From assembly GCF_004010195.1 (NCBI RefSeq), contig NC_057718.1, forward strand, positions 78,356,935-78,420,934: a stretch of 64,000 bases of DNA, given 5' to 3'. Below are positions 637 to 56,341 of the stretch, in pieces. Positions within the stretch are counted from its first letter, which is position 1. Each line of letters opens with the position of its first letter. The notes beneath the pieces are model-generated. The model had not been told where the DNA came from and ran no database searches. It saw only the letters and a program-made list of their open reading frames with translations. Source of the DNA: Chiloscyllium plagiosum (lineage: Eukaryota). A program made the translations under genes and the position numbers.

Positions 637-671
637 CACTAGCTTTCGGAATGCTGCTCCTTCATCAGGTG
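637..671 (-). ncRNA. Minimal hammerhead ribozyme motif, family A
   Basis: Minus strand reads cac-CTGATGA-a-ggagc agc attcc-GAAAGCTA-gtg. Confidence 0.65.
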
Positions 672-1493
672 ATTGTGAAGAATAAGATTGTTAGACACAA
701 TTTATAGCAAAAGTTTCCAGTGTGATGTAACTGAAATTATACAGCGAAAAAGACCCGAATTGGTGAGACCAAATAGACTATGGCAACGGATGAATGGGCA
801 CCGCAGAACAATCAACAGGCAGGAGTGTTCTGAATCGGACAACACTTCAGTGGTCCAGGACATTCGACCTCTGACCTTCAGATGACCTCCGAGACTGACT
901 TCGGGACAGGCAACAATAAAAAGTGGCCGAGCAGAAGCTGATAGCCAAGTTCGGTACCCATTCGGATGGCCTCAACCGGGAGCTATGGTTCATGTCACAC
1001 TACAGGTGACCCCATTGCACTATACACACAAATGGACAGACTGACCCTGCACCCCACCCCCCACAGACTTCAATCCCTTTACACACACTCCCTCTCATAC
1101 GCACTCATAATCCATGTGCACACATTTGTGGGGTGAATTTGTACTTGCAGAATTTTACTTTGCTCAAAAACTGCATGAGCTCATGTAAGATTTTGAAAAT
1201 CCGTTTTTAAGATTAGGTTCAATCTGACCATTGGCACAGACAGCCTCACGGAGTTAACACCTTGAATACCTTATCTGGACTGACTTGACACCAATTGTTA
1301 AAGTGCCCTTGAAAATGTAACTTCTTAAAAAAGTTTTGTGATTTACATATGAAAGAACTGATACCAACATAGTCATTCTAAGAGATGAGAGACTTAACAA
1401 ACAATTTGGTCTTTTATCAATATATAATTTCAGTTATATCACACTGGAAACTTTTGATATAAATTTGTATCTTACAATCTTACTCTCCACAAC

Positions 1494-1528
1494 CACCTGA
1501 TGAAGGAACAGTGCTCCGAAAGCTAGTG
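1494..1528 (+). ncRNA. Minimal hammerhead ribozyme motif, family A
   Basis: cac-CTGATGA-a-ggaac agt gctcc-GAAAGCTA-gtg; stem I cac/gtg, palindromic AGCT in place of helix III. Confidence 0.65.
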
Positions 1529-2546
1529 CTTTCAAATAAACCTGTTGGGCTATAACCTGGTGTTGAGACTTCTAACTTTGTACACCCCAGTCCAACACCA
1601 GCGTCTCCAAATCATTCATGTTATGAGTGGCATTAACAAAAACCTGACTGGATGATGACTCATTCCCTCATGAAGCCTCATATCTTCCATCTGCTGCCCC
1701 ATCAAGACTGATATGATCAGTGTGGGTTTATCACTAGAACATACCTTGGCCTGGCCCCCTATTCCTCTGGCACGACTTGCTTGAGAATCTTTACTTGTTT
1801 TGCCTTCACACTCATTTTATAAAATTCAGCTTTCTCTGTTGCCTTTTCAAGTACATTGAGACTTTTATTTTCACAGTTCCCCTTTTAACTGTGCCAAATG
1901 ATTTCTATGGTTTTAACTTTATCCTAACACCTCTTTCCCCAGTGTTGTTTTGTCCTTCCTCAATCTTTGTCCACAGAAACTCCCCAATCCAAATTCACAG
2001 CCATCTCCTTGATTTATCATCTCTTATCTCGCTCCCATTTTATCCAAGTCAATTTCCTTGTGTATGCTTCCATCCACATCCCAATTATACCTCATTTGTC
2101 TCCCTGGAAAAATCTATCATCTACAACTGCACTTGGAATTTTTCAAACTGTCTAGCCTCTTACCCCCCCCCCCCATTTGCTGTAACATTTCTGCAGTGAC
2201 CGATTTGCTCAACAGCACCCTTACTATCATGGTCTCTATTTGCTCTCATCATGTGATTCCCTCTGATATGGCCATCTGTCAATTGCCTTAAAACAAGGAG
2301 CACAGACTTGACAGGATAGTGGATAACTGCTCCAGCGATTCAAGACCAGATTTGGCTTTAAAATTGCAATAGTCTTGCAATGGCTACTGTTTTCACTTGA
2401 GAGAAACAACTGGTGGTGGTTTATGCTGAGGGTCACCAAGTGAGGGGAGAGATTGCAAGGGAGAGGCCTTTCATGGTAACTTCAGCAAATGTTGGAGTTG
2501 AATCCACACTATTTCTGTTGCACTGCCTCGGACACCAACTATCATA

Positions 2547-2998
2547 GTCATACAGCATGGAAATAGACCCTTTGGTCCCACCAGTCCATATTGACCATGT
2601 TCTCAAACGAAAGTAGTCCCACCTGCCTGCTGTTGGCCCATATCCCTCCAAACCTTTCCTGTTCATGAACTTCGCTATCTGTCTTTTAAACATTGTAACT
2701 ACTTGCATTCCACCACTTTTTCTGACAGTTAAATCCATAGATGAACCACTTTGTTTTCTCTTTTAAATAAAAAGTTGCACCATATCCTTAAATCTTGCTC
2801 CTCTCACCTTAAATCTGCCCATTATTCTGAACTCACTCATCCTAGGGAAAAAATTCTTGTTATTCACCTTATCTATGCCCCACATGATTTTATAAACCTC
2901 AGTAAGGTCGCCCTTCGCAGTCATCCTCTCCTAGTGGAAAAGGTCCCAGCCTTTACAATTTTCTAATCTCTCAACCCTCCAGTCCTGGTAACATCCTG
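2547..2998 (-). mobile_element. CR1/HER1-like LINE 3' fragment
   Basis: Typical 3' end on the minus strand (FKRQIAKFMNRKGLEGYG) plus a tail shared with HE1 SINEs. Confidence 0.6.
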
Positions 2999-3962
2999 CA
3001 ACTGAGCTAAATGGCTTCCATCTAGAGCGTATAAAAGACAGTTGTCCTGCTGTCATCTTCTAAGCTGCTTTAGGAACGTTCCAGAATCTACACTTTTGTT
3101 TACTGCAGGCTGTCTTCATAAATTCCTGTCTCCAGTCTCAGAAGAACATAAGAGCTAGGAGCAGGAATAGCCAGTTCAGCCCCTTTAGCCTGTCCTGTCA
3201 TTCAATATGATCACGGCTGATCTCCTCTCAACCTCAACTCCACTTTTCTCCATAAACCCTTCAACCCGTTGCTAATTAAAAATCTGTCTATCTCATCTAA
3301 GTTATTCAGTGTCCAGGCATCCACCAGGTGTTGAATTCCACACATTCTCAATCTTTTAAGAGAAATCATTTCTTCTCATTTGTTTTAAATTTGTTTAAAA
3401 CTATGATCTCATTCTAGGTTACCCGACAGAACAAACATCTGCCCTGTCTACTTTTGTCAAACACTTCAACATCTTGCATACCTCAATTAGGCTTTCTGTC
3501 CAGTCTTCTAAACTCGAGTACAGGCCTAAACTGCTCAATCTCTTTTCCAAAGATGTCCTCCTCTCTGGAAACAGTCTACTGAACTCATCGGTTGCTGATG
3601 ATGCAACTATACCCCTCTCAAGGGGGCCAAAACTCTGTGCAGTATTCCAGGTGCGGTCTCTCTAATACCTTGTATAGGAGCAGAAACATTTCCCTACTTG
3701 TACATTCTCTTCATTTATAATGCCAAAATTCTATTTGCCTGCCTTTATTACCAGCACCTGCACAATTTTCTCCAATTCATGCGTGAGTACACAGATTGTC
3801 TGCACTGATTTGTACTGAATTTTCTCTCATCTGGTAAGTTGCCTTTCTATTTTTATGTCCAAAATGTACAGCATCACACTTCACGTTAAACTCCGATCAT
3901 CCAAATTTTGGCCTATTCAGCTGACCTACACACATCCATTTGTAAATTCCCTCATTGCAAAG

Positions 3963-4845
3963 GTGGTCGACCCGCAATTTCCCCCCCGACGTGGTCGACC
4001 CGCAATTTCCCCCCCCACATGGTCGACGGTGCCCTCCACCGCATCTCCTCCACTTCCCGCTCCTCCGCCCTTGAGCCCCGCCCCTCCAACCGCCACCAGG
4101 ACAGAACCCCACTGGTCCTCACCTACCACCCCACCAATCTCCATGTACAGCGCATCATCCGCCGTCACTTCCGCCACCTCCAAACAGACCCCAGCACCAA
4201 GGATATATTTCCCTCCCCTCCCCTATCAGCATTCCGTAAAGACCACTCCCTCCGTGAATCCCTCGTCAGATCCACGCCCCCTACCAACCCAACCTCCACT
4301 CCCGGTACCTTCCCCTGCAACCGCAGGAGGTGCAACACTTGCGCCCACACCTCCCCCCTCACTTCTCTCCAAGGCCCCAAAGGAAACTTCCATATCCACC
4401 ACAGATTCACCTGCACCTCCACCCACATCATCTACTGCATCCAATGCAGCCGGTGTGGCCTCCTCTATATTGGGAAGACAGGCCGCCTACTTGCGGAGCG
4501 ATCCAGAGAGCACCTCTGGGCCACCCGGAAGAACCAACCCAACCAACCTGTAGCACAGCATTTCAACTCCCCCATACCCCTACATTTATCCCTTTCCTAA
4601 CACTAGGGGAAATTTAGCATGGTCAATTCACCTAACTNNNNNNNNNNNNNNNNNNNNNNNNTCCTCCATGTCCCTCCTCCCTACCTTTTATCTTCTCCTG
4701 CTGAACACTCTCTGCTCATTCCTGAAGAAGGGCCTGTGCCCGAAACGTCGAATCTCCTGTTCCCTGGATGCTGCCTGACCTGTGCTGTTCCAGCAATAAA
4801 GTTTCAACTTTGATCTCCAGCATCTGCAGACCTCACTTTCTCCCT
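3963..4845 (+). mobile_element. 5'-truncated Penelope-like retroelement (family B): linker, GIY-YIG endonuclease and 3' end with hammerhead; interrupted by an HE1 fragment and a gap
   Basis: ORF 3908-4600 contains PLVLTYHP, CNRRRCNTC and IYCIQCSRCGLLYIGKTGRLLAERSREH. Confidence 0.88.
4718..4753 (+). ncRNA. Minimal hammerhead ribozyme motif, family B
   Basis: attc-CTGAAGA-a-gggc ctgt gccc-GAAACGTC-gaat; perfect stem I and stem II, GUC cleavage triplet. Confidence 0.8.
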
Positions 4846-6599
4846 TCCTTGCATCAACCAGCTGGCATTTGGAGACATATGAAAATGCTATTAGTTTTCA
4901 TATTTATGCTGATAACACTCAGTTTAACCTTACTACCACCTATTTCAACTCCCTCCTGTTAAATTCAGAAACTGCTTATCCAACAAGAAGTGATGGATAA
5001 GTGAAAACACTTTTTCAATTAAATATTGGGGAGACTGTAGCCTTCATTTGTGCTCCCCACTTCAACCTGTATTTGCTAGCTACTGACTTCATCCATTTCT
5101 CTGGGACTGAGATTAAATCTGTCTGTCTGCAACTTTGGTTTCATTTGCCCTCAGTCACCTTCCGACCACATTTGCACCTTAACTAAGCCTGTTTGTTTTT
5201 AATTAACATTGCCTGACTTTGCTTTTCTGGGTGATCAGCTGCTGAAGCCCTGATCTCTGTTTTCTTGAGTCTTGAATATTCTAGTGTGCTGCTGACTGCT
5301 TTCTCATATTCTATCCTCTGTAATTTTGATGGTATCTAAAACTCTGCCACTTCCATCTGAAATGCTGAATTTGTTAAATCACCTAAGACCTTGAACTCAT
5401 TAATATATTGGCTCTAGATCAAGCAAGTCTTGATTATTAAATTTCAAATTCTTGGTGTCAAAGCTCTGTGGCTTTGCCCCTCCATATCTCTGTAAATCCT
5501 ATCGGCTTTCACAAACCTCAAACATCTGACCTGCTTTAATCAGTCTCTTAAATATCTTTCCAGTGTAATTGCTCTGCTATTGGTAGTTGCACCTTTTAGT
5601 TGTCTAGGACCTAAGCTCAAGATTGCAGTCTCTGCATCATCTCTTTCCTTCTTTAAAACACTCCTTTTTAAAACAACTTCTGACCACTTTTACTCTTCTA
5701 GCCAAATTTTATATCTCTCAAATATTGTTTAGTGCTTAAATGTTTCTCCTTTGTCTGTGGCCAGAACTGGATGCACTTGTCAACTAGTGAAGTGATTTCC
5801 CCACTCATTCTGTTTTGGTTCTACAGTTCAGTGTGTCATTTGTTTTGCTGCTCGACATTTAATTTATTCTCTTCAACTTCACCCTTTACAGTCTCAGCAT
5901 AATGAGGTGTTTTCTGTAAATTACAACAAAGAAAATTTAGCATTTTTACACATGTAAACTTAAATTGAGAGAAGTATGCTACTCAGCCATTCACATCTAC
6001 TCCATTGTACTATTATATTAGGGCTGATCTGGTATACTTCACATTCCCATCAACCTACAATAACACCTAATCAAGAAACTACCTACCTCTGCCTTAAAAA
6101 TATTTGACTCTTCTACCTGTGAAGTTGGTGGAAGCAGGTTCCAAAGGTGCTCAACCTCTGAGAGAAAGAACTTCTCTCTGCCTTAAATAGGTGACCTGTT
6201 GTTTTTAATCACTGACCCTTAGTTCAAAATTCTTGTACAATCTCTCACCAATGATCTGTATATTTGAAGCATGACCTCACTTTTGTATTCAATTCCCCTT
6301 GCAATAGATGTCACTCTCATTAACTTCATTACTTGCTGTATTACTTAACTAACCATTTGTAATTCATACAGTAGGACGTACAGATCTCTATCTCCACTCT
6401 GCAGTCTCCCCCATTTTGATAATGTGCTGCTTTTTCACTTATCCTGCTCAAGTAAGCAATTTCACCTTTTCCTTTGCCAGATCTGTTCGCTTGCTTAGCC
6501 TATCTGTATGCTTTTACAAAAAATTGGATGCTGAAGATCTGAAGCAAAAACAAATTGCTGGAGAAATTTAGCATATGATTTGCTTCCTTGTGTCCTTCA

Positions 6600-6917
6600 C
6601 AGAATCATAGAATCCCTGCAGTGTAGAAGTAAGACATTCAGCCCTTGTATTCACACCAACCCTTCAAAGAGCATCCAACTCAGACCCACCACCCTATTTT
6701 TGTAACCCTACCTTTCCTATGGTTAATCCACCTAGCCTGCACATCCCTAGATGCTAAGCAATTTACATGGCCAATCCACCTAACCTGTGCATTGTTAGAC
6801 TTGGGCAGGAAACCAACGTATAGAGAATGTGTAGACAGCTGCCAGATGGTGGAGTCGAACCCTGACCTCTGGTGCTGAGAGATAGCAGTGCTAATGAATG
6901 AGCTGCTGTGTTGCCTT
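6600..6917 (-). mobile_element. Diverged HE1-like SINE
   Basis: Similar to the cleaner copies at 38257-38564 and 63095-63388. Confidence 0.65.
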
Positions 6918-8188
6918 GTCACAACCTAACTTTCATACCTATCATTATATTATCAGCAAATTTAGCAACCAAACCATATCTTTGGTTCCTTCATCATAGT
7001 CGCTGGAGCAATTGAATTTAAAAAAAAAAGGCCCCAGCACTCTTCCAATGGTGTGTTACTCATTGTCTTGCCAACTAGAAAATGACCCATTTATGACTGA
7101 CCAGCTAACAGGACAGGAAAAGCATTTTTTATCTATGCTGGTATGCTACCCCTGCACCACGATCTGTTATTTGGTGATGTGACACTATATAGAGTGCATT
7201 CGAGAAAGATGATCGTGTTCTTTCATCCAGAGAAAGTTGCATCGAAGACATGAAATTAGTTAAATGTGATTTCCCTTTCACAATGACGATGTTGACCCTG
7301 CCTGAGTATCTTGAACTTATTCAAGTACCCTGCTTCAAAGTCTTTGATCAAAGGGAAAATGTTATAAGATATTATTAATGTTAAGCTAAATAGCTGTAGT
7401 TTCTTGCTTTTTGTCTCGAACCTTTCTAAATAAAGGAGTTATACTAAATATTTTCCATTCTGGTGGAATCTTCTCCAAATTTAAGGAATTCTGGAAAATT
7501 TAAATGAATGCTCAACTATCTCTCCAGTTAATTTAAAGATACTAGCATGAAGTCCATCAGGAACCAAGGACTTAACCCACTTAACCTTGCTCAGTATGAT
7601 TGTAATTTTGAGTTTCTCCCTCCACTTTCTATTACCTAATAACCCTTTTTTTAAAAGTTTTATCTGATATTATCTGCTCACTTATATATTTCCCACTTTG
7701 CTGTAATCCCTGACTCAGTTCCTTAGATTTTGCTGCGTCTTCTAGTTTTGGTATCATCCTCAGTTTTAATCAGTCAGCTTTCTGCTTTTGAATCTGTCAT
7801 TCATGTAAATTACAATGTAACTGACCCAGCATCAATTATAAGGACAGAATACCATGCTGCCATTTTTCTTTACTCACCCATGTAAATGCTGTCAAATTCA
7901 CTGCCTTTTACCCTTCAGATTTTTTTGTCTATACCTATGATTTACCCTGCATTCCCTTGTGCTTAGATTTTTGGATAATAGTATGGAACATTGTCAAATG
8001 CACCAGAAGGTTGAGGGACACAGCAAGGGTTTTCCACAGCTTAGTTCAGGCATTACTTTCTCAGAGGTTAACCATTCTGATGTACAAGGTTAAAGTTAGA
8101 GATTCCAATTGAGAAATTATTTTTGCTGCATTGTTACCTGCATTTTGGTTTTTTATCAAAAAAAATAACCAAACTCTGATTTCTTAAG

Positions 8189-8410
8189 GTGAAAACTGTC
8201 AAATTAAGGACCCAAAATTTGGTTATGTGATTGATCTGCGACCACTTGCTAATGAGGATCAGAAAGTGACAGTTGATGAATACACCTATCACTTCAGAGT
8301 ATGTGACTATTTGAGAAACCCTGACTGTGGTAGCTCTTCACAAGACGAGGAAAATGCAGTTTCAGCATGTCAGACAAAGCCACATGATGACTCTTTCAAG
8401 AAGATTGCAG
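8189..8410 (+). CDS. IGF2R: IGF2R exon (~human exon 27), domain 9 N-half: ENCQIKDPKFGYVIDLRPLAN...YHFRVCDY...VSACQTK...KKIAG
   Basis: ttcttaag| acceptor, G|gtgtgt donor, 222 bp, phase 1-1. Confidence 0.93.
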
Positions 8411-8599
8411 GTGTGTTGTCTTTTTCAATATGAAGTTCTAAAAATAAGAACTTTTTTCCTTAGGAAGTCTGTCTTTTCTCAACCCATGCAATGATTTGGT
8501 TAAACAAATGGGGCTAGCAATGTATTTTCAAATCTTTTCGTTTCAGCAGTGTTTGTGGGAATACCACCTTGAGATGGTGCAAAGAGCTCGTGTTCTGAC

Positions 8600-8872
8600 T
8601 TAGAATCCCTACAGTGTGGAAACAGGCCCTTCAGCCCAACAGGTCTATTCTGACCCTCTGAATCGTAACTCACCCAGACCCATTCCCTAACATAGTAATG
8701 TACATTTACATTTACCCCTGACTAATGCAACTAACCTGCACATCTTTGGATTATGGTAGGAAACTGGAGTACCCAGAGGAAACCCATGCAGACACAATGT
8801 GCAAACTCCACACAGACAATCATCTGGGTCCCTTGTGCTGTCCATGAGGCAGCAGTACTAACCACTGAGCCA
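8600..8872 (-). mobile_element. Diverged HE1-like SINE
   Basis: Contains acagtgtggaaacaggccctt...gcagtactaaccactgagcca blocks. Confidence 0.7.
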
Positions 8873-8979
8873 TCTAGCGTCACTAATGTAATGGAAGAAA
8901 ATAGCATTGTTGAGTGTGCAAGTAATGGGGGACTCCAAGTAAGTTGTGGTTCTGTTAGCTTGAGCTGGGAATTTGTGTT

Positions 8980-9019
8980 GCAGACGTTTCGTCCCCTGTC
9001 TAGGTGACATCCTCAGTGC
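8980..9019 (-). ncRNA. Minimal hammerhead ribozyme motif, family C
   Basis: Minus strand reads gca-CTGAGGA-t-gtcacct agac aggggac-GAAACGTC-tgc. Confidence 0.75.
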
Positions 9020-9266
9020 TTGGGAGCCGCCTGTGATGTGCTTCTGCGATCTTTCCTCCGGCATTTATAGTGGTTTGTCTCTGCCGCTTCCGTTGTCCGT
9101 TCCAGCTGTCCGCTGCAGTGGTCGGTATATTGGGTCCAGGTCGATGTGCTTATTGATTGAATCTGTGGATGAGTGCTATGCCTCTAGGAATTCCCTGGCT
9201 GTTCTCTGTTTGGCTTGGTGGTGCTGGAAGAGCACAGCAGTTCAGGCAGCATCCAGGGAGCAGCGA

Positions 9267-9303
9267 AATCGACGTTTCGGGCAAAAAGCCCTTCATCAGG
9301 AAT
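9267..9303 (-). ncRNA. Minimal hammerhead ribozyme motif, family B
   Basis: Minus strand reads attc-CTGATGA-a-gggc ttttt gccc-GAAACGTC-gatt. Confidence 0.72.
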
Positions 9304-10046
9304 AAAGGCAGAGAGCCTGAAGCGTGGAGAGATAAGCTGGTGGGGGTGGGGAGAAAGTAGCATAGAGTACAATAGGTGAGTGGGGGAGGGGATGAAGGTG
9401 ATAGGTCAGGGTGGAGAGGATAGGTGGAAAAGGAGATAGGCAGGTAGGACATGTCATGGGGACAGTGCTGAGCTGGAAGTTTGGAACTAGGGTGAGGTGG
9501 GGGAAGGGGAAATGAGGAAACTGTTGAAGTCCACATTGATGCCCTGGGGTTGAAGTGTTCTGAGGCGGAAGATGAGCCTCCTCCCTCACCTCTATCCAAG
9601 GCCCTAAAGGAGCCTTCCACATTCATCAAAGTTTTACCTGCACATCCACCAATATCATTTATTGTATCCATTGCTCCTAGCAGAGCGCTTTAGGGAACAT
9701 CTCCGGGACACCCGCACCAATCAACCACGCCGCCCTGTGGCCCAACATTTCAACTCCCCCTCCCACTCTGCCGAGGACATGGAGGTCCTGGGCCTCCTTC
9801 ACCATCGCTCCCTCACCACCAGACGCCTGGAGGAAGAACGCCTCATCTTCCCCAAACAGAGAACAGCCAGGGAATTCCTAGAGGCATGGCACTCATTCAC
9901 AGATTCAATTAATAAGCACATCGACCTGGACCCAATATACCGACCACTGCAACGGACAGCTGGAACTGACAACCGGAAGTGACAGAGACAAACCACTATA
10001 AATGCCGGAGGAAACACTGCAGAAGCGCTTCACAGGAGGCTCCCAA

Positions 10047-10086
10047 GCACTGAGGATGTTACCTAGACAGGGGACGAAACGTCTGC
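10047..10086 (+). ncRNA. Minimal hammerhead ribozyme motif, family C
   Basis: gca-CTGAGGA-t-gttacct agac aggggac-GAAACGTC-tgc. Confidence 0.75.
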
Positions 10087-14490: not shown

Positions 14491-14520
14491 CCGCATGTCT
14501 TTTTATAGCCAACCCAAGCC

Positions 14521-40019: not shown

Positions 40020-40032
40020 GTAAGTTAAATCC

Positions 40033-45257: not shown

Positions 45258-46542
45258 CTCCTGTTCCCTGGATGCTGCCTGACCTGCTGCGCTTTTCCAG
45301 CAACACATTTCCAGGTCAAACTTACTAATCAGGCCACCTACATTTTCCTCCAGATCATTTATGTATGTATATTGCAAACAACCAAGGTCCCAGCACTGAC
45401 CCCTGTGGAGCATCCCTAGTTACTGATCTCCTCTGTTGCAGAAAGTACCCTTTCATCTTCTATGACCAAGCCAGGTTTGTATCTATCTAGCCAACAAACC
45501 TCTGATCCCATGAAACTCTATCTTTTGTACCAGCCTGCTATGAGAAACCTTTTAAAGTGACTTAGTAAAATCCATTTGTACAATATACGCTGCTCTTCCC
45601 TTAACGATCATTCTTGTCACTACCTTAAAATCAATGAAGTTGGTGAGACATGACCTTTCCCTACACAAATCCATGCTGCTTGTCATTAACAAGACCATTT
45701 GTTTCCAAATGTGAGTAAATTCTTTCTCAAGATCTTCTCCAACAGCTTCCCTACCACTGATGCCTGTATTACCTTGATTATCTGTTTTCTTTCTGTAACA
45801 AAGGAACAACTTGGCCATTCTCCCATCCTCTGGAACCTTGCCTGAGGTGATAGGGGATGCAAAGTTATCTGCTCTCAGCTATTTCCTCCCTTGCCTCCCA
45901 CAGTATCCTGAGATTGATCCCATCTGACCCGAGGGACTTGTCTACCTTAATGCATTTCAAGACCCCAATGCTGCTTCCTCATTATGTTGATCTTCCCCAG
46001 AGTATTCACACACCTTTCCCTAACCCCTGCATTCGTCACGTGCCCCTCTTTAATGAATACTGATGTAAAATATTCATTAAGGATCTCACCCATTTCCTCG
46101 GGTTTACAACATCATCTCCCTCCTTTTATCCTTGAGTGGGCCTACTTTATCTTAGCTACCTTCCTAATATGTGTAAAATGCTTTCTGATTCTCCTTAATC
46201 CTGCTGGCCAAGGATGTTTTATAGCCCCTTTTTAGTTCTCCAAACTCCCCATTTAAGCTCATTCCTGCTTGCTATGTTCCTTCAAGGACTTTATCTGTTT
46301 TCAGTTGGGTAAACCTTAAGTATACCTTTTTGTTTTGACTAAGCTGATTTTTTTTGTCATCCAAGGTTCCTGAATCCTGACATCCCTGTCCTTTTTTTTT
46401 TTACAGGAATCACATGTCCTGCACTCTGACCAGTAGTCTTTAAAAGACTCCTACATGTCAGATATGAATTTACCCTAAACAGCTGCTCCCAATCCACGTT
46501 CTTCAGTTCTTGACTAATTCAATTGTAGTTGGCCTTCTCCAA

Positions 46543-49500
46543 AAGTCCATAAGACATCGGAGTGGAAGTAAGGCCATTCAGCCCATTGACTCCACTCTGG
46601 CATTTAATCATGGCTGCTGGGCATTTCCACTCCACTTACCTGCACTCTCCCTGTAGCCATTTAATTCCTTGCGAAATCAAGAATTTATCCATCTCTTCCT
46701 TGAAGACATTTAACATCCTGGCCTCCACTGCGCTTCATGGCAATAAATTCCACAGGCCCACCACTCTGTCTGAACAAGTGCCCCCTCATTCCCATTCTAC
46801 ATTGATCCCCTCTAATTTTATGGCTGTGTGCCCAGGTCCTAGTGTCCCTGTCTAATGGAAAGTTTCCCAGCATTCACCCTTTCTAAGCCATGCATTATCT
46901 TCTAAGTTTGTATTAGATCTCCCCACAACCTTCTAAACTCCAATAAATACAATCCCAGGATCCTCAAATGTTCATCTTACGTTAGGCCTACCATTCCAGG
47001 GATCATCCATGTGAATCGCCGTTGGACACGCTCCAGTGCCTGTATGTCCTTCCTGAGATGTGGGGCCCAAAATTGGACACCGTATTCTAAATGGGACCTA
47101 ACTAGAGCTTTATAAAGTCTCAGAAGCACAGTGCTGCTTTTACATTCCAACCCTCTTGAGATAAATGACAACATTACATTTGTTTCTTAATCACTGACTC
47201 GACTTGCAAGTCAACCTTTAGAGAATCCTGGACTAGCACTCCCAGGTCCCTTTGTACTTTGGCTTGAGGAATTTCCTCACCATTTAGAAAATAGTCCATG
47301 CCTGGATTCTTCCAAAGTGCAAGAGCTTGCATTTGTTCAGTAAATTTCATCAGCCGTTTCCTGGACCACTCCTAAAATGTCTAAATCTTTCTGTAGCCTC
47401 CCCACCTCCTCAGTACTATCTGCCTGTCCACCTAACTTTGTATCATCGGCAAATTTCGCCAGAATGTCCCCAGTCCCTTCATCCAGTTCATTAATATCTA
47501 AAGTGAACAGCTGCAGCCCCAACACTGAACCCTGCAGGACACCACTTGTCACTAGCTGCCATTCCGAAAAAGAACTTTATCCCAACTCTTTCTGTCAGAC
47601 AGCCAATCCTCAATCCATGCCAATAGCTCATCTCGAACACCATGGGCCCTCCCCTTACTCAGCAGCCTCCTGTGAGGCACCTTATCAAAGGCCTTTTGGA
47701 AGTCTAGGTGGATAACATCTGCAGGGTTTTCCCGGTCGAACCTACTTGTTACCTCTTCGAAGAATTCTAACCGGTTTATCACTCTCAACCTCCCCATACT
47801 AAGTGCATGCTGACTTGTTCTAATCTGACTCTGCACTTCCAAGAATTTAGAAATCACATCCTTAACGATGGATTCTAGCATTTTACCAACAACCAAGGTT
47901 AGGCTAATCAGCCTATAATTTTCCATCTTTGTCTTGATCCTTTCTTGAACAAGGGGGTTACAAAGCGATTTTCCAATCATCTGGGACTTTCCCTGACTCG
48001 AGTGACTTTTGAAAGATTACAAACAACACCTCCGCCATTTCCTCAGCCATCTCCCTCAGAACTCTAGGATGTTCCCATCAGGGCCAGGAGATTTATCAAT
48101 TTCTAGACCTTTTTAGCTTTTCTAACACTTTCTCTTTTGTAATAGCTATCATACTCAACACTGCTCCTGACTCTCCTTAATTGTTGGGATATTACTTATG
48201 TCTTCCACTGAAGACTGATGCAGAGTACTTAAGTTCTTCAGCTATTTCCTTATTCCCATCACTAGCCTTCCAGCATCAATTTGGAGTGGCCTAATGTCTA
48301 CTTTTGCCTCTTGTTTCTTATTTATTAAAATAAACTTTAACTATCATTTCTAAGATTACTGGCTAGCTTATCTTCATATTTGATCTGCTTCCTTATTTCT
48401 CTGTTATCCCCTGGTTGGTTGGTTGGTCGATCGATCGTCTGATTTCCCAGTGCTCTGGCCACTTTATAGGCTCTCTGGTTTTCTTTGTTACATTTCCTGA
48501 CCTCCTTTGTCAGCTGTGGTTGTCTAATTCTTCCCCACCCCAGATATTCTTTCTTTTTCTTTGGGATGAACCTCTATACTGTGTCCTCCATACAATCAGA
48601 AACTCCTGCCATTGTTGCTCTACTGTCTTCCTTGCTAGGCTCTGCTTTGTCGATTTTCATCAGTTCCCTACTTGTGCCCCTGTAATTATCTCTTAATTAA
48701 CTGTAAAGCCATTACATCTGATTTTGCCTTCCTTTTCAAACTCGAGACTGAACTCGACCATATTATGATCATTGCTGGAAAAGCGCAGCAGGTCAGGCAG
48801 CATCCAGGTAACAAGAGAATCAACGTTTCGGGCATAAGCCCTTCTTCAGGAGAAGGGCTTCTGCCCGAAACGTCGATTCTCCTGTTCCCTGGATGCTGCC
48901 TGACCTGCTGCGCTTTTCCAGCAACACATTTCCAGCAATGATCTCCAGCATCTGCAGACCTCACTTTCTCCTCATATTATGATCATTGCCTCCTAAGTGT
49001 TCCTTACTTTAGATCTTTTATAACGTCTGGCTCATTACATAGCATGACCAAAAAAGCCTGCTCACAAGCTGTTCCAAAAAGCCATCCTGTAAGCATTCCA
49101 TGAATTCCCTTTCTTTGAATCCACTGGCAACATTATTCACTCAGTCCACCTGCGTATTGAAGTTCCCCATGATCACATGGCCTTGCCTTTTCTGAACGCC
49201 CTATCTATTTCCCAGTGCATCTTGTGTCCCTGGTCTTGACCACTGTTGGGAGGTCTGTACATAACTCCCATTTTGGTTTTTTGCCTTCATGGTTTCTCAA
49301 CTCCACCCACACAGACTGCACACCATCTGCCCTTATACCATTCAGTGCCATAGATTTAATTTCATTCCTAACTAACAAGGCAATGTTGCCCCCTCTGCCC
49401 GTCTCCCTGTCTTTTCGATAAGTTGTAAATCCTCTAATGTTTAGCTGCCAGTCCTGAACCCCCTGCAACTGCATCAGATGCCTACCATATCATAATCATT

Positions 49501-50690
49501 CATGATTTGTGCCGTTTGTTCATCTACTTTGCTATAAATACCAGTGTTCAGGTAAAGTGCCTTAATGCTAAGTTATTATTAGAGACATTGGAAATCATAA
49601 GATGGCTTAAGTTTTCCTTCCTTTGTTTGCTGCATTCCTAGTCTGCCCCGACTTAAAATCACCAGCACGCATGCTATGCTGCTTTCCAGTTAACTCCATA
49701 CTCCGTCGCTTTCACTCCCTCCCTTCATCCCTCCCTCCCTTCACCCCCCCCCCCCCCGACTCAATTTTAAAGTCCTACTGACCATGACCACCCTTTGTAT
49801 CCTTTATGCAAGAACACTGGTTCCAGATCGGTTCAGGTGGAGACCATCCCAACAGTACATATCTCCACCACCACCCCCGTTCCAAAACTGATGCCAATGC
49901 CCCATGAAATGGAATCGCTCTTTCCCACACCAATCCCTTAGCCACGTGTTTACTTCCCTAACTTTCTTAGCCCTATGCCAATTGGCACGTGACTCCGGCA
50001 GTAATTCTGAGATCATGACCCTTGAGGACCTGTACTTCAATTTCCTTCCTAGTGCTTGATAATCCCCAAACAGGTCTTCCACCTAGCTTTGCCTATGTTG
50101 TTAGTCCCAACAACTGGATCCTCTCCCTCCAGCTCCAATATCCTTTCAAGCTGGTTGGAGAAGTCCTGCACTCTGGCACTGGGCAGGCAACATGCCATGT
50201 GGGTCTTCTGATCCAGCTTGCGAAGGATATTATCTGTCCCCTAATTATAGAATCCCCTATAACAACTAGTCTTTTTTGCTTCCCCCTCTTGAATAGCCTT
50301 CTGCACCATGGTGCCATGATCAGCTGGCTCATCCTGTCTATAGCCCTTTCTCTCATCCGTACAGGAAGCAAGAATCTCATACCTGTTTGACAAGGTCAAG
50401 GGCTGAGGTCCCTTAATCTCACACTCTTTCCCTGAACACTCAATTTAATTACTAAATCTCCCAGGTATGACAGCCTCCTAACAGTGTCCAGGTAACTCTT
50501 TTCCCCTCCCGGATGTGCCGCAGAGTTTGAAGCTCAGATTCCAGATCATCAATTCTGTTCTGGAGTTCTTCCAGCAACCAACACTTGCTACAGATGTCAC
50601 TGTTGTTCACAATGGGATCAGCCAGCTCCCACATCATACAGCTACAGTACAACATCTATCCGGTCCTAACTAAACTTTTACAATTTATTC
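46543..50690 (-). mobile_element. Near full-length CR1 LINE: ORF1 (zinc finger, coiled coil, SGNH esterase) and ORF2 (APE endonuclease, RT), pseudogenised
   Basis: CSCMMWE..CSKCWLLEELQNRIDDLESEL; VVIGDSIIRG; DGLHLN; DWQLNIRGF.TYRKDR; FQKAFDKVPH; KFADDTKLGG. Confidence 0.92.
48759..48989. mobile_element. Fold-back family B insertion with 17-bp TSD; hammerhead on the minus strand at 48818-48850
   Basis: TSD catattatgatcattgc at 48759-48775 and 48973-48989; 48772-48845 pairs with 48851-48924. Confidence 0.85.
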
Positions 50691-52539
50691 TCCCTTCATC
50701 TGAAGTTCACTCGTGTCGTTGTAGGTATCTGAAAACTTTGGGAATTACAGTCACTATTCCCAAAATGCGCTCCCACTGAAGCTTTGATCACCTGGACGGG
50801 CTTCTTCCCCAATACTGGGTCCAGTATGGCCCCCTCACTCATTGGATTATCCAGATACTGTTTCAAAAAGACCCTCCTGGACACAATGAACAAACTAATC
50901 CCTATCCAAACCCCTGGCAAGAAGTGAATTGCAATCAATGAGGAAAGTTAAAACCACCCGCCACAACCATTATTTCCAAAATCTGACTAAATATTTCTTC
51001 CTCTATCTCCTGCTAGGAGGTCTGTCATACAATCCCAGCATTGCAATTGCACCCTTCCTAAGCCTGAGTTCTAACGATAATGCCTTGCTGCCCCTCCATG
51101 GTGTCCTTCATCAACACAGCTTTGATATACTGCCTGACCAGTAATGCAACTCCCATACCCCTCTCGCGTTGTCCTCTGTCTCGTCTAAAACATCAATATC
51201 CCGAGCGTTAAGCTGCCAATCCTGCCCCTCTTTCAACCGTGTCTCTGTGATGCCAACAATATCATAATTGCATGCGTTAATCCAAGCTCTAAGTTCATCC
51301 ATTTTACCTGTTCTACTACTAGTATTGAAGCAAATCCAGCCCAACCTCCAAATCTGCTGAACTCCGCAATCTCTCCCGACTGCTCTTCCTGTTGGCAATA
51401 TTTACCTTGTTCTTAGGCTTATTCTTTTTCTTACCTTATTCCTGACTCTTTGTATTGCTGCTACAATTACCACATTCCTGCCACATTAGATTAAACCCTC
51501 CCAAGTGACACTATCCAACCTCCCTGCCAAGATATTGGTGCCCCTCCAGTTTAGGTGAAACCTGTCTTTGTTCAGCTTCCACCTTCCCTTGGAGACCTTC
51601 CAAAGATCCAAATATCTGAAGACAGCTTTTTGACCACATGTTCTATTGTGCTATGTCTCTGTTCCCAGCCTCAGTAGGATGTGGAATAATCCTGTGATTA
51701 CTACCCTAAAGGTCCTGATTTTTAGTTTACTACCTAACTCCCTGACTTGTTGCAGAACCTTGTCACTCTTCCTAGCTCTGTATTTGTGCCAATATTGTCT
51801 ATTTATCCTCTCATTTCAGGATGTCCTGTACACTCTTAGACACCTGTGACCCTTGCACCAGGGAGGCAACATAGCACCTTGTGGCGAAAGAAGTGCCTTT
51901 TTGTGCCCTTACTATCAAATCTCCAATTGCTATTGCTGTACGCTTTGCCCTCCTCTCTGTACAGCAGGAACTTGCTCTGTCCTAGCTCTGCAACCTCTTA
52001 TGGTGCTACCATCCTGAAGTCTGGGTGCTCCAGTTAGTCTTCCCAGTTTTTCATCACTTTGCAAATGACAGATCTGCCTTCAACTTCAGCATTTAGCTCT
52101 AGAATTCCTTTCCTAAAACTTTCCTCTCCACATATCTCTTGTTTCCTTCAAGATATTTCTTAAGATCTAACTCTTAATCCAAGCTTTCAGCCGCCTATTA
52201 TAGCACATCTGTAGATCAGTATCAGATTTTTGTTCCTGTGCAGTGTCTCTGTTGATTTTTGTGAAGTCTATATTAATGAAAGTTGAAGAGGGGTATGCCT
52301 TTATTGAAGAAGAATACATTTAGGTTCTTTCATTGAGGATATATGTTATTCACTTGGATGCAATAATTACACTTGCAATAATTTCAATCTTTCAATTGTA
52401 TATTTGACCATAGTCTTATGATGTGCTGACATTGTTTACAAGAATGATTCAGACCAAAGCGCTGCAGCTGAAGAAAATGATACATTGTAAATGAATGCTA
52501 ACATTTCAGTTTCAATAACTTGCTTTTTTGTTGTTGTAG

Positions 52540-52689
52540 GCAATTGGTTATGCTTCTGCACCTCCACAAATTAATTCAGCAACTCAGGACGTCTACATTT
52601 CTTTCACAACCAATGTTACCTGTCAAACAGATCCTAAATTGACTTATGACTCCCTCATAGTATTCCATTGTGTCAAGGGTGTAGACTTG
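52540..52689 (+). CDS. IGF2R: IGF2R exon (~exon 36): AIGYASAPPQINSATQDVYISFTTNVTCQTDPKLTYDSLIVFHCVKGVDL
   Basis: ttgttgtag| acceptor, TTG|gtaaga donor, 150 bp, phase 0-0. Confidence 0.94.
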
Positions 52690-52964
52690 GTAAGAAATTT
52701 GCTTGACTGTTGTGTAATCAGTATAAAGTCTAATATAAATCAAAATCAAGTGGGTAACAGTCAAAGGCTTGTATTATCCTTTTGAGTAATGATTGATATG
52801 TTCTAGCTTTATGTAAATAACCAGATACAAAGCTTAGATTTTGGTGTTATTTTGTCTTTGTATATCTACACCATTACCTAATATTATGTTGTGATAATGT
52901 GAAAAGGTGATATTAAATTTCATGTGTTGAAATGCTGATCCATTCTGTGATTTCTTCTCGCCAG

Positions 52965-53126
52965 GGAAGACCAAAAATGATGAGAAAATCAGAATGTAGC
53001 TTTGTGTTTGAATGGGCAACTCCACTGGTGTGTCCAGATTCAGTGATTACATCTGGCTGTTCACTATTTGATCAACAGTTACATCACACCTTCAATCTGT
53101 CTGTTTTAACAGGAGGGAAATACCAG
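52965..53126 (+). CDS. IGF2R: IGF2R exon (~exon 37): [54 protein letters not shown]
   Basis: ctcgccag| acceptor, CAG|gtaatg donor, 162 bp, phase 0-0. Confidence 0.96.
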
Positions 53127-54353
53127 GTAATGGATTAATTATAGAAAGCTAATGCGTAACAAACTGAAGTTTAAGTAAAGGAGGCATAATATTGAAATTT
53201 ACAGACAACATAAAGATGAATGAAAGAACTAAGAAAGCCAAGGATATGGCTAAGTAGAGACCAGGTGGATCACAAATGAAGTTAATAAGTAGCAATGTGA
53301 AATGATCCGCTCAATGGTAAGATGTACAAGAGCAGGGTGAATGGGAGTGAGTTATGCATACTGTTTTAAAAATTGTGCGCTATAGTTGATCGCTTTATTT
53401 TAAAAATAGAAATGAGGCCCCAATTTTTGTTTCCTAGTTGGGACAAATTCCTACTTTGTGAAATAATATTGTATGTGGAAGATTGTCAAATGCTTTCTGG
53501 AAATTAGATACAGTACATCAATAGGCTTTTTATCCAAAACACATTACTCCTTCAAAGAATTCTAATAACTTGGTTAAACATAATTTCTTTTTCTCAAAAC
53601 CATGTTGACTCTTCCCAGTTACCTTTACTTTTATTTTGTTAAAAAAAGTACCCAGCTGATAACATCAATAATGTTTTTTTTTCCCCCTTTTTCAGACATT
53701 GAGTTAACTGACATGTAAAATTGTTTTTGGCCTTTCTCCCTTCTTGAACACAGGGATTATATTTGCTGATTCCCAGGCTAATGAAACTTTTCCAAAATCT
53801 AGCAAAGTTTGTCAAATTAGCAAAGTATTAAACCGAGGGAAGATTTAACTCTAGGATAAAGTTCATCATGACCCAAGGACTTAAACAGAGAGTTCAACAG
53901 TTTGCTTATTACCACTTCCACAGGGATTGTAATTTCACCAAGTTCCTCTTTTTGTTTTCCACCTCCTGATTGTAGCTATTATTGCACTATTTTTGCTATT
54001 CTCAAATGAAGAGAAGTAAAATATCTAATCATTGAATATGCCATTTCCTTATTAACTCCCTATTCTCTTTTTCAAGAAAACCAGCACACTTGTTCTTTCC
54101 CTTTTTTTAAATGACTAAAGACTCTCTCGCTATCATTTTTACTCCCTATTGTGCTTCCACTTTTGGTTTCCTGAGGTTTTAGTTTAGTTCTTCCAATTTA
54201 ATTTTAACTAACAAGTCACTACTGGAAGGCAATATGGTGTCTGATTTTTAACATACGGGCAATATTTGAATATGAAAAGTCTCTTTCATGCAGAATAGTC
54301 TCATTAATTTGCTATCATAACACAACTAATTGACACTATTCATGATCCTTCAG

Positions 54354-54555
54354 GTCAACTTTAAAGGAAGGACCTATCACCTTAATATATGTGCAGCAGT
54401 AACGGGTGTACCTGACTGTAAAAACAGCGCTGTCTGCTTGGTCTCGGGTAACGAAGCAGCATCATTTGGAAATCCAAAAGCAATGACCCTGGAATACAAA
54501 CACCAGGATCAGGCCTTGATGTTGTATTATAGGAGTAGTGATCTGTGCCCAAAAG
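54354..54555 (+). CDS. IGF2R: IGF2R exon (~exon 38), domain 13: VNFKGRTYHLNICAAV...YKHQDQALMLYYRSSDLCPK
   Basis: ccttcag| acceptor, AAG|gtaaga donor, 202 bp, phase 0-1. Confidence 0.95.
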
Positions 54556-54604
54556 GTAAGAGACATTAATTTAGTTTGGTTGCTTGTCTCTTGTGTATAA
54601 AATA

Positions 54605-54938
54605 AGAATCCCTACAGTACGGAAACAGGCCATTTGACCCACTGAGTCTACAGTGACCCTCCAAAGAGTATCCCCTCAGAGCCACCCTCTACCCTATCCC
54701 TGTAATGCTGCATTTCCCATGGCTAGTCCACCTAACCTGCACATTATGAGCAATTTAGCATAGCCAATCCAGCTAATCTGCACGTTTTTGGACTGAGGCC
54801 ATCAGAGCATCCTGAAGATACCCATGCCAATACTGGGAGTGCATGCAAACTGCGCACAGACAGTTGGTTGAGGCTAGAATCGAACTCCGGTCCTTTGTGC
54901 TATGAGGCAACTGTGCTAACTACTGAGCCACCATGCAG
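54605..54938 (-). mobile_element. Diverged HE1-like SINE
   Basis: Same blocks as 38257-38564. Confidence 0.7.
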
Positions 54939-55339
54939 CCTGTGTTCTGAGTTAGCTGACCTTTAACCAGGATAGAATTAAAGGATGCTGCAATTTGCTT
55001 CACAATCCTGGGCTGAAGAAATTACACATTTGGCATGGTTCCTGCTGAAAGTGCCTTTGTGAATTTCCAGTACGTCCATGAGCTGAGTGCATTATAATGC
55101 TGTCCATAATTGAATGGATGGACATGGTCTTTGTTTCCACTCATGTATAAAGATGACCAACTGGGTGAGCAAAAAAATGGGAGCAAGAAAGAACAGCAGG
55201 TAACAGACCATGATAGGAGTTAAGCTTTTTTTTTTATTTAAGCATCACCTAAAGAAATTGATGATGCTTTAGGATGGAGTTTAGACTATATCTCTCTTGT
55301 GGAAGTGACTTAGTGCCTTTTCTTCGATGCCTTTGACAG

Positions 55340-55486
55340 TAACTGAAAGAGGAGAGCTTTGCAGATTCCCTTTCATATTTCTTGGGAACTCCTACAGTGA
55401 GTGTACAACAGATGGGAAAACAGATGGATTTCTGTGGTGTTCAACAACTAATGACTATTACAAGGACAAAGCATGGGGCTTCTGTA
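55340..55486 (+). CDS. IGF2R: IGF2R exon (~exon 39), fibronectin type II insert: [48 protein letters not shown]; 3' end uncertain (55486 or 55492)
   Basis: Classic FnII signature (CxFPF, YxxC, WCSTT, WGFC) and a good acceptor ctttgacag|. Only a weak in-phase donor, A|gtaatg, is present. Confidence 0.85.
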
Positions 55487-55613
55487 GTAATGAAATGTAA
55501 TAGTAACTGTATGTCTTTGTATACAAGTGGTGAATGTTTAAAATGACTGCCAGTTATTTTAATTTCTTGCAGTTTGTTTTAAATGAACTTTTTTAAATAT
55601 TCATTGGCATCAG

Positions 55614-55848
55614 GAACAGCAACTCGGAGATCAACAGTCATCTTCAGATGTGATGAAACAGCTGAAAATGGAAACCCCGAAGTGCTGAGTGAGATCCTTG
55701 GTTGCTCAACAACTTTTGAATGGAAGACTAGCGTTGTTTGTCCACCCAAAAAGATGGAATGCAAGATAGTTTACAGGCATAAGACCTATGATTTAAGAAT
55801 GCTTTCTTCCCTTACTGGATCATGGAAGTTTACATCGAATGGTGATAC
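55614..55848 (+). CDS. IGF2R: IGF2R exon (~exon 40): [50 protein letters not shown]...[13 protein letters not shown]...NGDT
   Basis: catcag| acceptor, AC|gtaagt donor, 235 bp, phase 1-2. Confidence 0.94.
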
Positions 55849-55889
55849 GTAAGTTATGGTTTTCTCACTGTTTTATAGAGGTTGCTTCT

Positions 55890-56341
55890 GTTTTTGTATA
55901 AGTTGAAACTTTATTGCTGGAACAGCACAGCAGGTCAGGCAGCATCCAGGGAACAGGAGATTCGACGTTTCGGGCACAGGCCCTTCTTCAGGAATGAGCA
56001 GAGAGTGTTCAGCAGGAGAAGATAAAAGGTAGGGAGGAGGGACTTGGAGGAGGGGAGTTGGAAATGTGATAGGTGGAAAGAGGTCAAGGTGAGGGTGATA
56101 GGTCGGAGTAGGATGGAGGCGGAGAGGTCAACAAGAAGACTGCAGGTGAGTTGAAATGCTGTGCCACAGGTTGGTTGGGTTGGTTCGTCCGGGTGGCCCA
56201 GAGGTGCTCTCTGAATCGCTCCGCAGGTAGGCGGCCTGTCTCCCCAATATAGAAGAGGAGGCCCCGGCTGCAGCGGATGCAGTAGATGATGTGGGTGGAG
56301 GTGCAGGTGAATCTGTGGCGGATATGGAAGTTTTTGTATAA
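55890..56341 (-). mobile_element. Penelope-like family B 3' fragment with 12-bp TSD
   Basis: Reverse complement of ~4385-4810; TSD gtttttgtataa at 55890-55901 and 56330-56341. Confidence 0.88.
55960..55995 (-). ncRNA. Minimal hammerhead ribozyme motif, family B
   Basis: Minus strand reads attc-CTGAAGA-a-gggc ctgt gccc-GAAACGTC-gaat, identical to 4718-4753. Confidence 0.8.

Follow-up and report, generated by a model that had tools for sequence, protein, structure and literature searches.

Minimal hammerhead ribozymes in IGF2R introns of Chiloscyllium plagiosum as stubs of Penelope-like elements, probably copied from mostly uncut RNA

Small motifs with a complete hammerhead core recur through the introns of IGF2R in Chiloscyllium plagiosum and raise the question of which elements left them there and in what state the RNA was when it was copied. 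The window analysed here is a stretch of 64,000 nucleotides (NC_057718.1, positions 78,356,935–78,420,934 of the forward strand). The host gene occupies all of it on the plus strand (1..64000) and runs beyond both ends. Its placement in IGF2R, proposed earlier from the letters of the window (the sequence-only reading), agreed with the exons encoding CIMR repeats that flank the window on the plus strand at both sides, and two exons inside the window match residues 1233–1308 and 1954–2030 of the cation-independent mannose-6-phosphate receptor. The motifs appear to be intronic, being located in fragments of Penelope-like elements (PLEs) distant from the exons found.

A direct check of the sequence recovered all 11 motifs of that reading in place and on the expected strand, namely 637..671 (−) and 1494..1528 (+) of family A; 4718..4753 (+), 9267..9303 (−), 19338..19373 (+), 30521..30556 (+), 45222..45257 (+), 48818..48850 (−) and 55960..55995 (−) of family B; and 8980..9019 (−) and 10047..10086 (+) of family C. 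Each of the 11 consists of CUGANGA, one extra nucleotide, helix II, GAAA, a 4-nt palindrome and NUH, and the palindrome described as replacing helix III is AGCU in family A and ACGU in families B and C throughout. In a random sample of the genome (60 stretches of 10 kb from contigs C1–C23 only), the extra nucleotide between A9 and 10.1 was present in 47 of 47 matches and AGCU or ACGU in 35 of 47, the remainder being mostly CpG-decayed. The G10.1–C11.1 closing pair is intact in 10 of the 11 window motifs. A descriptor that added pairing to the core (helix II of at least 3 bp, helix I of at least 2 bp) found 10 matches in the window against a mean of 0.04 and a maximum of 1 in 100 dinucleotide shuffles; it missed the motif at 19338 because the 10.1–11.1 pair is broken there. 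A perfect 4-bp helix I occurs in the window only at 4718 and 55960; it carries a U·U mismatch at 9267, 19338 and 30521 and is just 2 bp long at 45222 and 48818, both of which also end in GUU. Six further copies reported as decayed are real, yet truncated or mutated in the core, and additional broken copies that had been missed lie at 48874 (+), 28041 (+/−), 58714 (+), 62276 (−) and about 14375–14410 (+). Rfam, to which the earlier reading had looked for confirmation, returned no hammerhead family among 11 matches up to E = 10, presumably as expected because helix III is absent; its best matches, miRNA models placed on the fold-backs with scores well under the cut-off, were rejected. Rfam thus overlooks every one of these motifs, which may serve as a warning.

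The link to PLEs was established by flanking GIY-YIG and reverse transcriptase (RT) fragments, and every motif lies directly after a GIY-YIG frame or within a short piece of the same terminal repeat (pLTR). In family A, the motif at 637 (nt 17 at 640) is in a short inverted pLTR arm (585–755) and that at 1494 (nt 17 at 1525) in a long arm with a tail to about 1620; six-frame translation of the DNA between the arms gave a broken GIY-YIG C-terminal fragment (approximately 750..1000, +), the motifs of which recur in family A loci L005, L015 and L030. The palindrome and triplet are mutated in a short solo copy of this family (57850..57946, +). The family B hammerhead at 4718 (nt 17 at 4749) belongs to the young B2 subfamily and follows a fragment with Cys linker and GIY-YIG (3992..4573, +) that is 92% identical to the open frame of locus L155. 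An older linker and GIY-YIG fragment (18724..19128, +; 71% identical to that frame) precedes the motif at 19338, and an RT fragment with an assembly gap directly after it (29373..29750, +; 92% identical) precedes that at 30521 (nt 17 at 30552). The motif at 45222 is in a solo insertion of ~95 bp that begins at the hammerhead and has a 12-bp flanking direct repeat, whereas that at 48818–48850 is paired with a truncated partner to nt 17 at 48874 (+) in a head-to-head mini pair (48771..48972) with one short arm, one tailed arm and a 17-bp flanking direct repeat. The family C hammerheads at 8980 (nt 17 at 8983; short arm 8943–9217) and 10047 (nt 17 at 10083; long arm 9852–10165, which comes after the endonuclease C-terminus) form a fold-back pair, at the centre of which sits a B element that has a 5' inversion (9218–9850) and the hammerhead at 9267 (nt 17 at 9271). 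An older Poseidon-type fold-back insertion (13722..14424) contains the broken core near 14375–14410. The suggestion of recent activity was supported by a very young B2 insertion (55902..56330, −), comprising a GIY-YIG fragment and the pLTR with hammerhead 55960–55995, which has a 12-bp target duplication and an empty site, the empty-site contig being present in two other sequencing runs. Ten units were searched for target duplications, and four had them.

Locus L155 has an open frame of 893 aa, which contains DKG, RT, the Cys linker and GIY-YIG and lies immediately before a B2 hammerhead. Pfam recognised GIY-YIG at three family B fragments, two of them above the curated cut-off, and scored that of L155 at 21.2 bits, slightly below the 22.6 cut-off; it recognised neither the short PLE RT fragment nor the family C fragment. 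The upstream frames of families A and C show GIY-YIG motifs, the loci fetched holding GIY-YIG and upstream fragments only. The endonucleases are about 27–38% identical to each other, in keeping with the three lineages proposed. The CX2-5CxxC linker between RT and endonuclease (EN) was found in family B and, in family A, intact in L030 only; the pattern occurred in 2 of 14 family C loci reaching the GIY-YIG motif, and both matches were discounted, one as an embedded B fragment and one as a stop-containing chance match. On this one diagnostic motif, A and B are putatively Neptune-type and C Poseidon-type, the former name covering Neptune and Nematis alike. Of 30 family C loci examined, 29 had a recognisable core; in all 29 an ATG lies at A9-9a-G10.1, as at 10047, and the long end is 110 nt past it. 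The five long family B loci inspected showed no hammerhead of an upstream pLTR. The hammerheads of the three related clades probably share descent.

Minimal hammerheads (min-HHRs) in pLTRs of metazoan PLEs were described in 2014 (Cervera and De la Peña, PMC4209133), including those of Poseidon and Neptune of fishes, and as described there they share with the present motifs the type I topology, a short helix I, an added nucleotide separating 9 from 10.1, the G10.1–C11.1 pair and palindromic 15.2–16.2; further common traits are the presence of several consensus families in a genome, a predominance of truncated copies that stand alone and some close opposite-strand pairs. EN+ PLE units (Neptune/Nematis and Penelope/Poseidon) are described as having 5' truncation, an adjacent inverted copy, a 30–40-bp tail at one end and GIY-YIG at the C-terminus (Craig et al. 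2021, PMC8557442); relative to that description our units show no structural difference, with the Cys linker in A and B and none in C. Judged by sequence, the window motifs are minimal type I hammerheads in PLE terminal repeats; motif and host element were already known, and the added value lies in the scale and in what the scale reveals. Lunse et al. reportedly found small hammerhead variants with a diminished stem III, of the same architecture and PLE association, that cleave as dimers.

The high density claimed for this genome was borne out, as one core pattern had 166,395 matches genome-wide against 289 for a control pattern. The pairing descriptor gave an estimate of roughly 210,000–380,000 hammerheads, and more than three hammerhead types are present. 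PLEs have left well over a hundred thousand hammerhead stubs across the genome. The 166,395 matches exceed any single-genome count found in print, descriptors differing between studies; the vertebrate maxima in PMC4209133, also obtained with another descriptor, are ~9,000 for Xenopus tropicalis and ~4,000 for the coelacanth. One supplement of that paper that was searched contained no shark term, and the literature searched held no shark hammerhead census, although supplements beyond that search may hold shark entries. IGF2R is not special in hammerhead density: an enrichment specific to it (10 seen against 5 expected, P = 0.03) was rejected as weak, the window having been chosen for its motifs.

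The state of the template was approached through the insertion ends. Copies were 5'-truncated and often head to head, with a 30–40-nt tail confined to one of the arms. The arms were unequal, one long and the other short, in all 39 mutual head-to-head pairs of the random sample (26 B, 13 A) and in 31 of 35 pairs in the window and in query-selected loci. All-versus-all mapping of 5' ends without masking was discarded because inverted arms confounded it. With masked mapping, and after exclusion of copies for which the 120 nt upstream contained N or an edge, 5' ends fell at −45 to −26 in 48 of 114 family B copies and 18 of 39 family A copies of the random sample and at 0 to +4 in 5 of 114 and 4 of 39, respectively; the 4 family C copies of that sample were too few for this test. 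The genome-wide profile was taken from one subfamily, B2, in which ~18,000 near-identical young copies allow base-by-base counting. From 17,868 copies at +1 to +26, the count fell to 15,691 reaching −19, 10,818 reaching −30, 4,522 reaching −46 and 4,104 reaching −69, a loss per base over the successive intervals of 0.7%, 3.4%, 5.5% and 0.4%, and 63% of the copies begin 19–46 nt upstream of the cut site. At nt 17, the position before the cut site, a purine was found in only 135 of 17,868 copies. This test does not detect two arms whose junction coincides with the cut site, since C would then precede it, and such joins are bounded only by the 12% loss from +1 to −19 and by the 3 of 43 listed pairs (random-sample and window pairs) with both arms near 0. 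About three quarters of the B2 copies are of hammerhead size. Because few copies start at the cut site and the ends pile up upstream of it, the most likely template is uncut RNA that started shortly before the hammerhead, which suggests that the stubs were copied from RNA that had not self-cleaved.

We consider it probable that the motifs are the pLTR min-HHRs of EN+ PLEs, which two Neptune-type lineages (A and B) and one Poseidon-type lineage (C) left behind in dead insertions copied from mostly uncut RNA. The mechanism is inferred from the insertion ends. The PLE endonuclease would cut both strands at an AT-rich site, RT would prime on each strand from either of two positions inside the RNA (in A and B about 55 and 95 nt past the cut site; in C about 40 and 82 nt past it), and copying would proceed toward the RNA 5' end, after which the two cDNAs would join head to head. 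The 5' end of most templates would lie a few nucleotides upstream of helix I, where the pLTR probably has a transcription start of its own, and these templates would not have self-cleaved. With an upstream RNA start and internal priming, the commonest and smallest product would be a 90–130-bp stub, and since this stub includes the hammerhead, the copy number of the motif would become huge. The Poseidon element PAc of Anolis carolinensis has its ORF start at stem II and primes 111–118 nt into the ORF; its tail is set by two internal priming sites, cutting and extension take place on both strands at AT-rich targets, and the main template is unprocessed RNA (Frangieh et al. 2024, PMC11167929). 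Family C matches PAc in ATG position and long end (110 nt against 111–118), and the long and short arms of our pairs match the two internal priming sites shown in vitro (PMC11167929). Whereas that work concerns one Poseidon element in vitro, the same signature is seen here in genomic copies of two Neptune-type lineages, together with a 5' pile-up upstream of helix I that we did not meet in what PMC11167929 reports of PAc. PMC4209133, in contrast, proposed cleavage followed by circular templates, whereas the insertion ends here point to uncut ones.

The same elements could have acquired the 5' pile-up in another way, which we regard as rather unlikely: RT may stall or switch template past the hammerhead, a splice acceptor may lie at the 5' end of helix I, or fold-backs may be trimmed after insertion. 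In Drosophila Penelope an intron end was mapped to the helix I 5' end (PMC4209133), and the sequence upstream of the family B hammerhead is pyrimidine-rich; the 5' ends are scattered across about 27 nt rather than fixed at a single base, and many of them coincide with a fold-back junction (55 of 114 in B, 28 of 39 in A). Solo copies, however, show the same pile-up (29 of 59 solo B copies of the random sample at −45 to −26) with unrelated flanks and no visible common upstream exon. An RT stall would be expected 3' of the helices, where the loss is lowest, and past −46 the loss returns to 0.4% per base, as for a second class of longer templates.

In the main reading, selection on the ribozyme would act only in source elements, where it is probably slow, working as a same-family dimer or aided by a PLE protein; the scattered intronic copies would decay, fastest at CpG including G12, and probably have no effect on IGF2R. 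Decay at the core was 2–3% at non-CpG positions and 16–19% at the G12 CpG. Across dispersed copies the core, expected to be better conserved than its surroundings, was about half as variable as the 3' flank (Fisher P 0.03 and 0.02); base composition or selection in source elements may account for this, and weak selection may act on the dispersed copies themselves. Helix pairings covary between families when read unscored from structure-anchored sequences, which replaced an automatic three-family alignment that put family C in the wrong place; the covariation implies that the ribozyme fold is maintained somewhere.

It seems improbable to us that the dispersed copies are active ribozymes mattering to the host, with same-family sense copies pairing in pre-mRNA and cutting introns at thousands of genes, although core and palindrome are intact in many copies (35 of 47 random matches keep CG or GC), the core is more conserved than the flank, and copies are transcribed, with 349 RNA reads in one run, 87% of them continuing into other sequence, and none in another run. 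Those 349 reads (3'-type single-cell, from thousands of loci) showed no position with many molecule starts or ends. In IGF2R, the motifs at 4718, 30521 and 45222 are an example of a sense trio. Such sense copies lie 15–26 kb apart, the strands show no bias (13 sense against 10 antisense copies in the window), and the pairs are head to head, leaving a single sense arm per transcript. Moreover, the nearest-neighbour model disfavours the dimer, placing the double-hammerhead fold 10–47 kcal/mol above the competing dimer fold. In the systems reported, single min-HHRs were without cleavage and dimers cleaved at a low level (PMC4209133), the anole PLE hammerhead required protein (PMC11167929), and 8 of 9 Xenopus dimers did not cleave (bioRxiv 10.64898/2026.07.22.740005). 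Cross-family dimers were considered and rejected on inspection, B and C sharing ACGU but having helix I strands unable to pair.

Very improbable is a separate non-autonomous class, a non-LTR retrozyme or hammerhead SINE with its own and possibly circular RNA, to which the short copies would belong. Non-LTR retrozymes carry type I hammerheads in large numbers (126,247 in axolotl), are related to PLE pLTRs and are dimer-dependent in vertebrates (Cervera and De la Peña 2020, PMC7229834; bioRxiv 10.64898/2026.07.22.740005); they are said to derive from those pLTRs and to include some in one chondrichthyan (bioRxiv 10.64898/2026.07.22.740005), and the hammerhead size of about three quarters of the B2 copies would suit them. 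Yet retrozymes form head-to-tail arrays of 170–400 nt with circular RNA (PMC7229834; bioRxiv 10.64898/2026.07.22.740005), whereas the copies here are dispersed, solo or head to head, and run without a break into coding PLE bodies, and no head-to-tail array was found at any of the 11 window motifs. Short and long copies also share one sequence with a continuum of 5' ends, and the cut-site starts expected of retrozyme monomers were not seen in the purine test. Chance matches or an assembly artefact have a negligible probability: N gaps inside longer PLE copies do lead to under-counting of long copies, but near-N copies were excluded from the 5'-end count, and such an origin of the motifs is already refuted by the shuffles (mean 0.04 against 10), the control pattern (289 against 166,395), the target duplications and the empty site.

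Whether this is both the largest hammerhead load so far recorded for a single genome, with at least 166,000 intact cores, and an in vivo fossil record of two-strand, two-site internal priming, in Neptune and Poseidon, on uncut RNA with its start slightly upstream of the hammerhead is a claim to which we give an even chance. The insertion ends speak against templates that had been cleaved and favour the priming model obtained in vitro (PMC11167929), which they extend to elements of Neptune type. From them the RNA start and both priming sites can be predicted at exact positions. What the hammerhead does in EN+ PLEs has been called unclear (PMC8557442). If the present reading is true, the ribozyme does not form the template ends and must serve another step, which could be destruction of the RNA or a switch-off at its own start codon, and the family-specific helix I would confine the dimer reaction to one lineage.

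All 11 minimal type I hammerhead motifs proposed by the sequence-only reading were found at their positions in the window. The pairing descriptor, which required the core, a helix II of at least 3 bp and a helix I of at least 2 bp, gave 10 matches in the window, whereas 100 shuffles averaged 0.04 and never exceeded 1; the motif at 19338 was missed because its closing pair is broken, and an Rfam scan of the window returned no hammerhead match. The host gene had been named as IGF2R, and this holds, since CIMR exons on the + strand lie beyond both window ends and two window exons match the cation-independent mannose-6-phosphate receptor.

The helices were read from structure-anchored sequences of families A, B and C. 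Helix II opens with G-C, G-C and A-U pairs in A, with three G-C pairs in B, and with G-C, U-A and C-G in C; helix I opens with C-G, A-U and C-G in A, C-G and U-A in B, and A-U, C-G and G-C in C. Base pairs are preserved despite two-sided changes, and therefore the fold was maintained in the source elements. The hammerhead palindrome is AGCU or ACGU, and helix III is unable to close within a monomer. A dimer-swapped helix I spans two molecules, so that same-family pairs alone would fit; the modelled dimer lay 10–47 kcal/mol above the best competing fold in a model without tertiary terms. Helix I is a perfect 4-bp helix in B2, the youngest B subfamily, and has a U.U mismatch in older B subfamilies.

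In family B, a Cys linker and GIY-YIG endonuclease lie upstream of the hammerhead at 3992–4573, 18724–19128 and 56141–56344, and a reverse transcriptase (RT) fragment of a Penelope-like element (PLE) lies at 29373–29750. At another locus, L155, an open frame of 893 aa encodes both RT and GIY-YIG and is followed directly by a B2 hammerhead. The N-terminal part of this PLE frame (L155 880–3561, − strand) is a repeated unit of ~40 aa, which may reflect tandem duplication or an artefact of the assembly. The GIY-YIG upstream of the hammerhead is 30–36% identical to that of B in family A (longest matches), the Cys linker of which is intact at locus L030, and 27–38% identical in family C, which is without the linker. 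An ATG stands at the helix II start of C in 29 of the 29 loci having the core (30 examined). The Cys linker is a criterion for PLE clade assignment in the available text of PMC8557442, and by it, rather than by a tree, A and B would be Neptune-type and C Poseidon-type. Taken alone, PLE membership of the hammerhead motifs is nearly certain.

The count of three families stands for the window and falls for the genome, as further hammerhead types are present in the flanks of fetched loci. At least 2–3 such types, differing in helix II and downstream sequence, were seen (loci L002, L044, L070, L092, L095, L100 and L114; window 62276, − strand), and 59035–59394 (−) is an older PLE fragment with 45% identity to the B ORF. 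Other window repeats include an RT-bearing one in two copies of opposite orientation, ~85% alike (24496–26180 and 46541–48071), which we take to be CR1/L2-like; an RT fragment (Pfam RVT_1) at 29050–29373, which abuts that of the PLE, together with an integrase-like stretch at ~31207–31512, both broken and presumably Gypsy-like; and a dispersed ~300-bp family (6659–6895, 8601–8872, 16588–16913, 31718–31947, 38257–38566, 54605–54940 and 63108–63389), assumed to be a tRNA-derived SINE.

The degenerate core pattern, with pairing ignored, matched 83,206 and 83,189 times on the two strands of the 3.56-Gb genome, and its reversed control 140 and 149 times. In a random sample of 60 evenly placed 10-kb stretches from contigs C1–C23 (589,195 called bases), the pairing descriptor gave 47 matches (29 B, 14 A, 2 C and 2 other) in 33 stretches, a density of 80 per Mb that would extrapolate to 208,000–377,000 genome-wide. 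The window, which was selected for motifs, holds a mild excess (10 hammerheads against 5 expected). The available text of PMC4209133 gives ~9,000 hammerheads in X. tropicalis and ~4,000 in coelacanth, and other single-genome counts, as far as their accessible sources go, are >6,000 in coral and 126,247 in axolotl; descriptors differ between studies and any ranking is provisional. B2 is young, with 17,868 exact 26-mer matches genome-wide, and the PLE RT fragment gave 150 scored matches of 92–100% identity, 148 without stops. The B2 insertion at 55902–56330 has a 12-bp target duplication and is skipped by a contig in sequencing runs X1 and X15 (two samples, same species label). This marks 55890–56342, which lies in an intron of IGF2R at 50 bp from an exon end, as a presence/absence site.

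The copies were gathered through the region +25 to +45 past the cut site (nt 17), independently of the core, giving 124 B, 41 A and 4 C copies in the random sample. They are truncated and of PLE origin, with fold-back pairs, a one-sided tail and a zone of 5′ ends upstream of the cut site. Their 3′ ends form two clusters, near +55 and +95, and one end of each type was found in 39 of 39 mutual head-to-head pairs of the random sample and in 31 of 35 pairs from the window and query-selected loci. The family C pair in the window has its ends at +40 and +82, and +82 lies 110 nt past the ATG. In vitro, according to the accessible part of PMC11167929, the protein of an anole Poseidon element cuts both strands and extends each of them; its two internal priming sites, 111–118 nt into the ORF, delimit the tail, and its template is mainly unprocessed RNA.

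Once copies that had an N or an edge in the 120 nt upstream were set aside, 5′ ends in the random sample fell at −45 to −26 in 48 of the 114 B copies and 18 of the 39 A copies (29 of 59 solo B copies), and at 0 to +4 in 5 of 114 and 4 of 39. Genome-wide B2 counts confirm this pile-up just upstream of the core: 17,868 copies reach +1, 15,691 reach −19, 10,818 reach −30, 4,522 reach −46 and 4,104 reach −69, which amounts to 0.7, 3.4, 5.5 and 0.4% lost per base over the successive intervals. No other shared upstream sequence was found in 19 B2 copies inspected. A purine at nt 17 occurs in only 135 of 17,868 B2 copies, therefore at most ~1.5% have a 5′ end at the cut site that abuts unrelated flank; the test is blind to symmetric cut-site junctions, for which the 12% loss up to −19 sets the bound. 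An N gap is met at −87 both in the B2 copy at window 4638–4661 and in that at locus L096, so young copies are systematically broken in this assembly.

We suggest that two internal RNA sites would prime both target strands, and that the cDNAs would extend as far as the RNA 5′ end and then join. The commonest RNA would begin just upstream of helix I, which agrees with the internal promoter in the terminal repeat of Drosophila Penelope described in the available text of PMC2377424, and longer copies would come from RNAs reading through the ORF. The hammerhead may be amplified by its position in the smallest copied unit, not by usefulness of the copies. The whole reading, with PLE-derived copies, two-site priming and an RNA start before helix I, is considered probable. 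At 8943–10165, a family B element lies exactly central in a family C fold-back pair, with a 5′ inversion (ORF residues 583–686 on +, then 685–710 on −) that resembles twin priming; this nest may have arisen from an element inserting at the tip of a hairpin, or from a switch of template from one PLE RNA to another.

Self-cleavage by the dispersed copies is a candidate activity. The core is less variable than the 3′ flank in A (4/170 against 51/764, P 0.03, 17 copies) and B (13/440 against 108/1,942, P 0.02, 44 copies), which weakly bears out the core conservation looked for in the sequence-only reading; flank subfamily differences and base composition could explain this contrast. Against such activity, copy pairs are arranged head-to-head, the gene holds 13 sense and 10 antisense copies, and G12, part of a CpG, is mutated in 16–19% of bracketed copies. 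In the accessible text of PMC4209133, PMC11167929 and bioRxiv 10.64898/2026.07.22.740005, monomers did not cleave, and dimers cleaved slowly or needed protein. RNA reads span the element with no pile-up of read ends, though such reads cannot decide cleavage. A retrozyme identity was rejected on the tandem-array test.

A literature search, with Lunse et al. and preprint supplements outside its scope, found no shark hammerhead census. The PLE minimal hammerheads in the available text of PMC4209133 have the same working, and all their testable features are found here. The hammerheads described here are further examples of this published type, and their copy ends give a useful mechanistic by-product.
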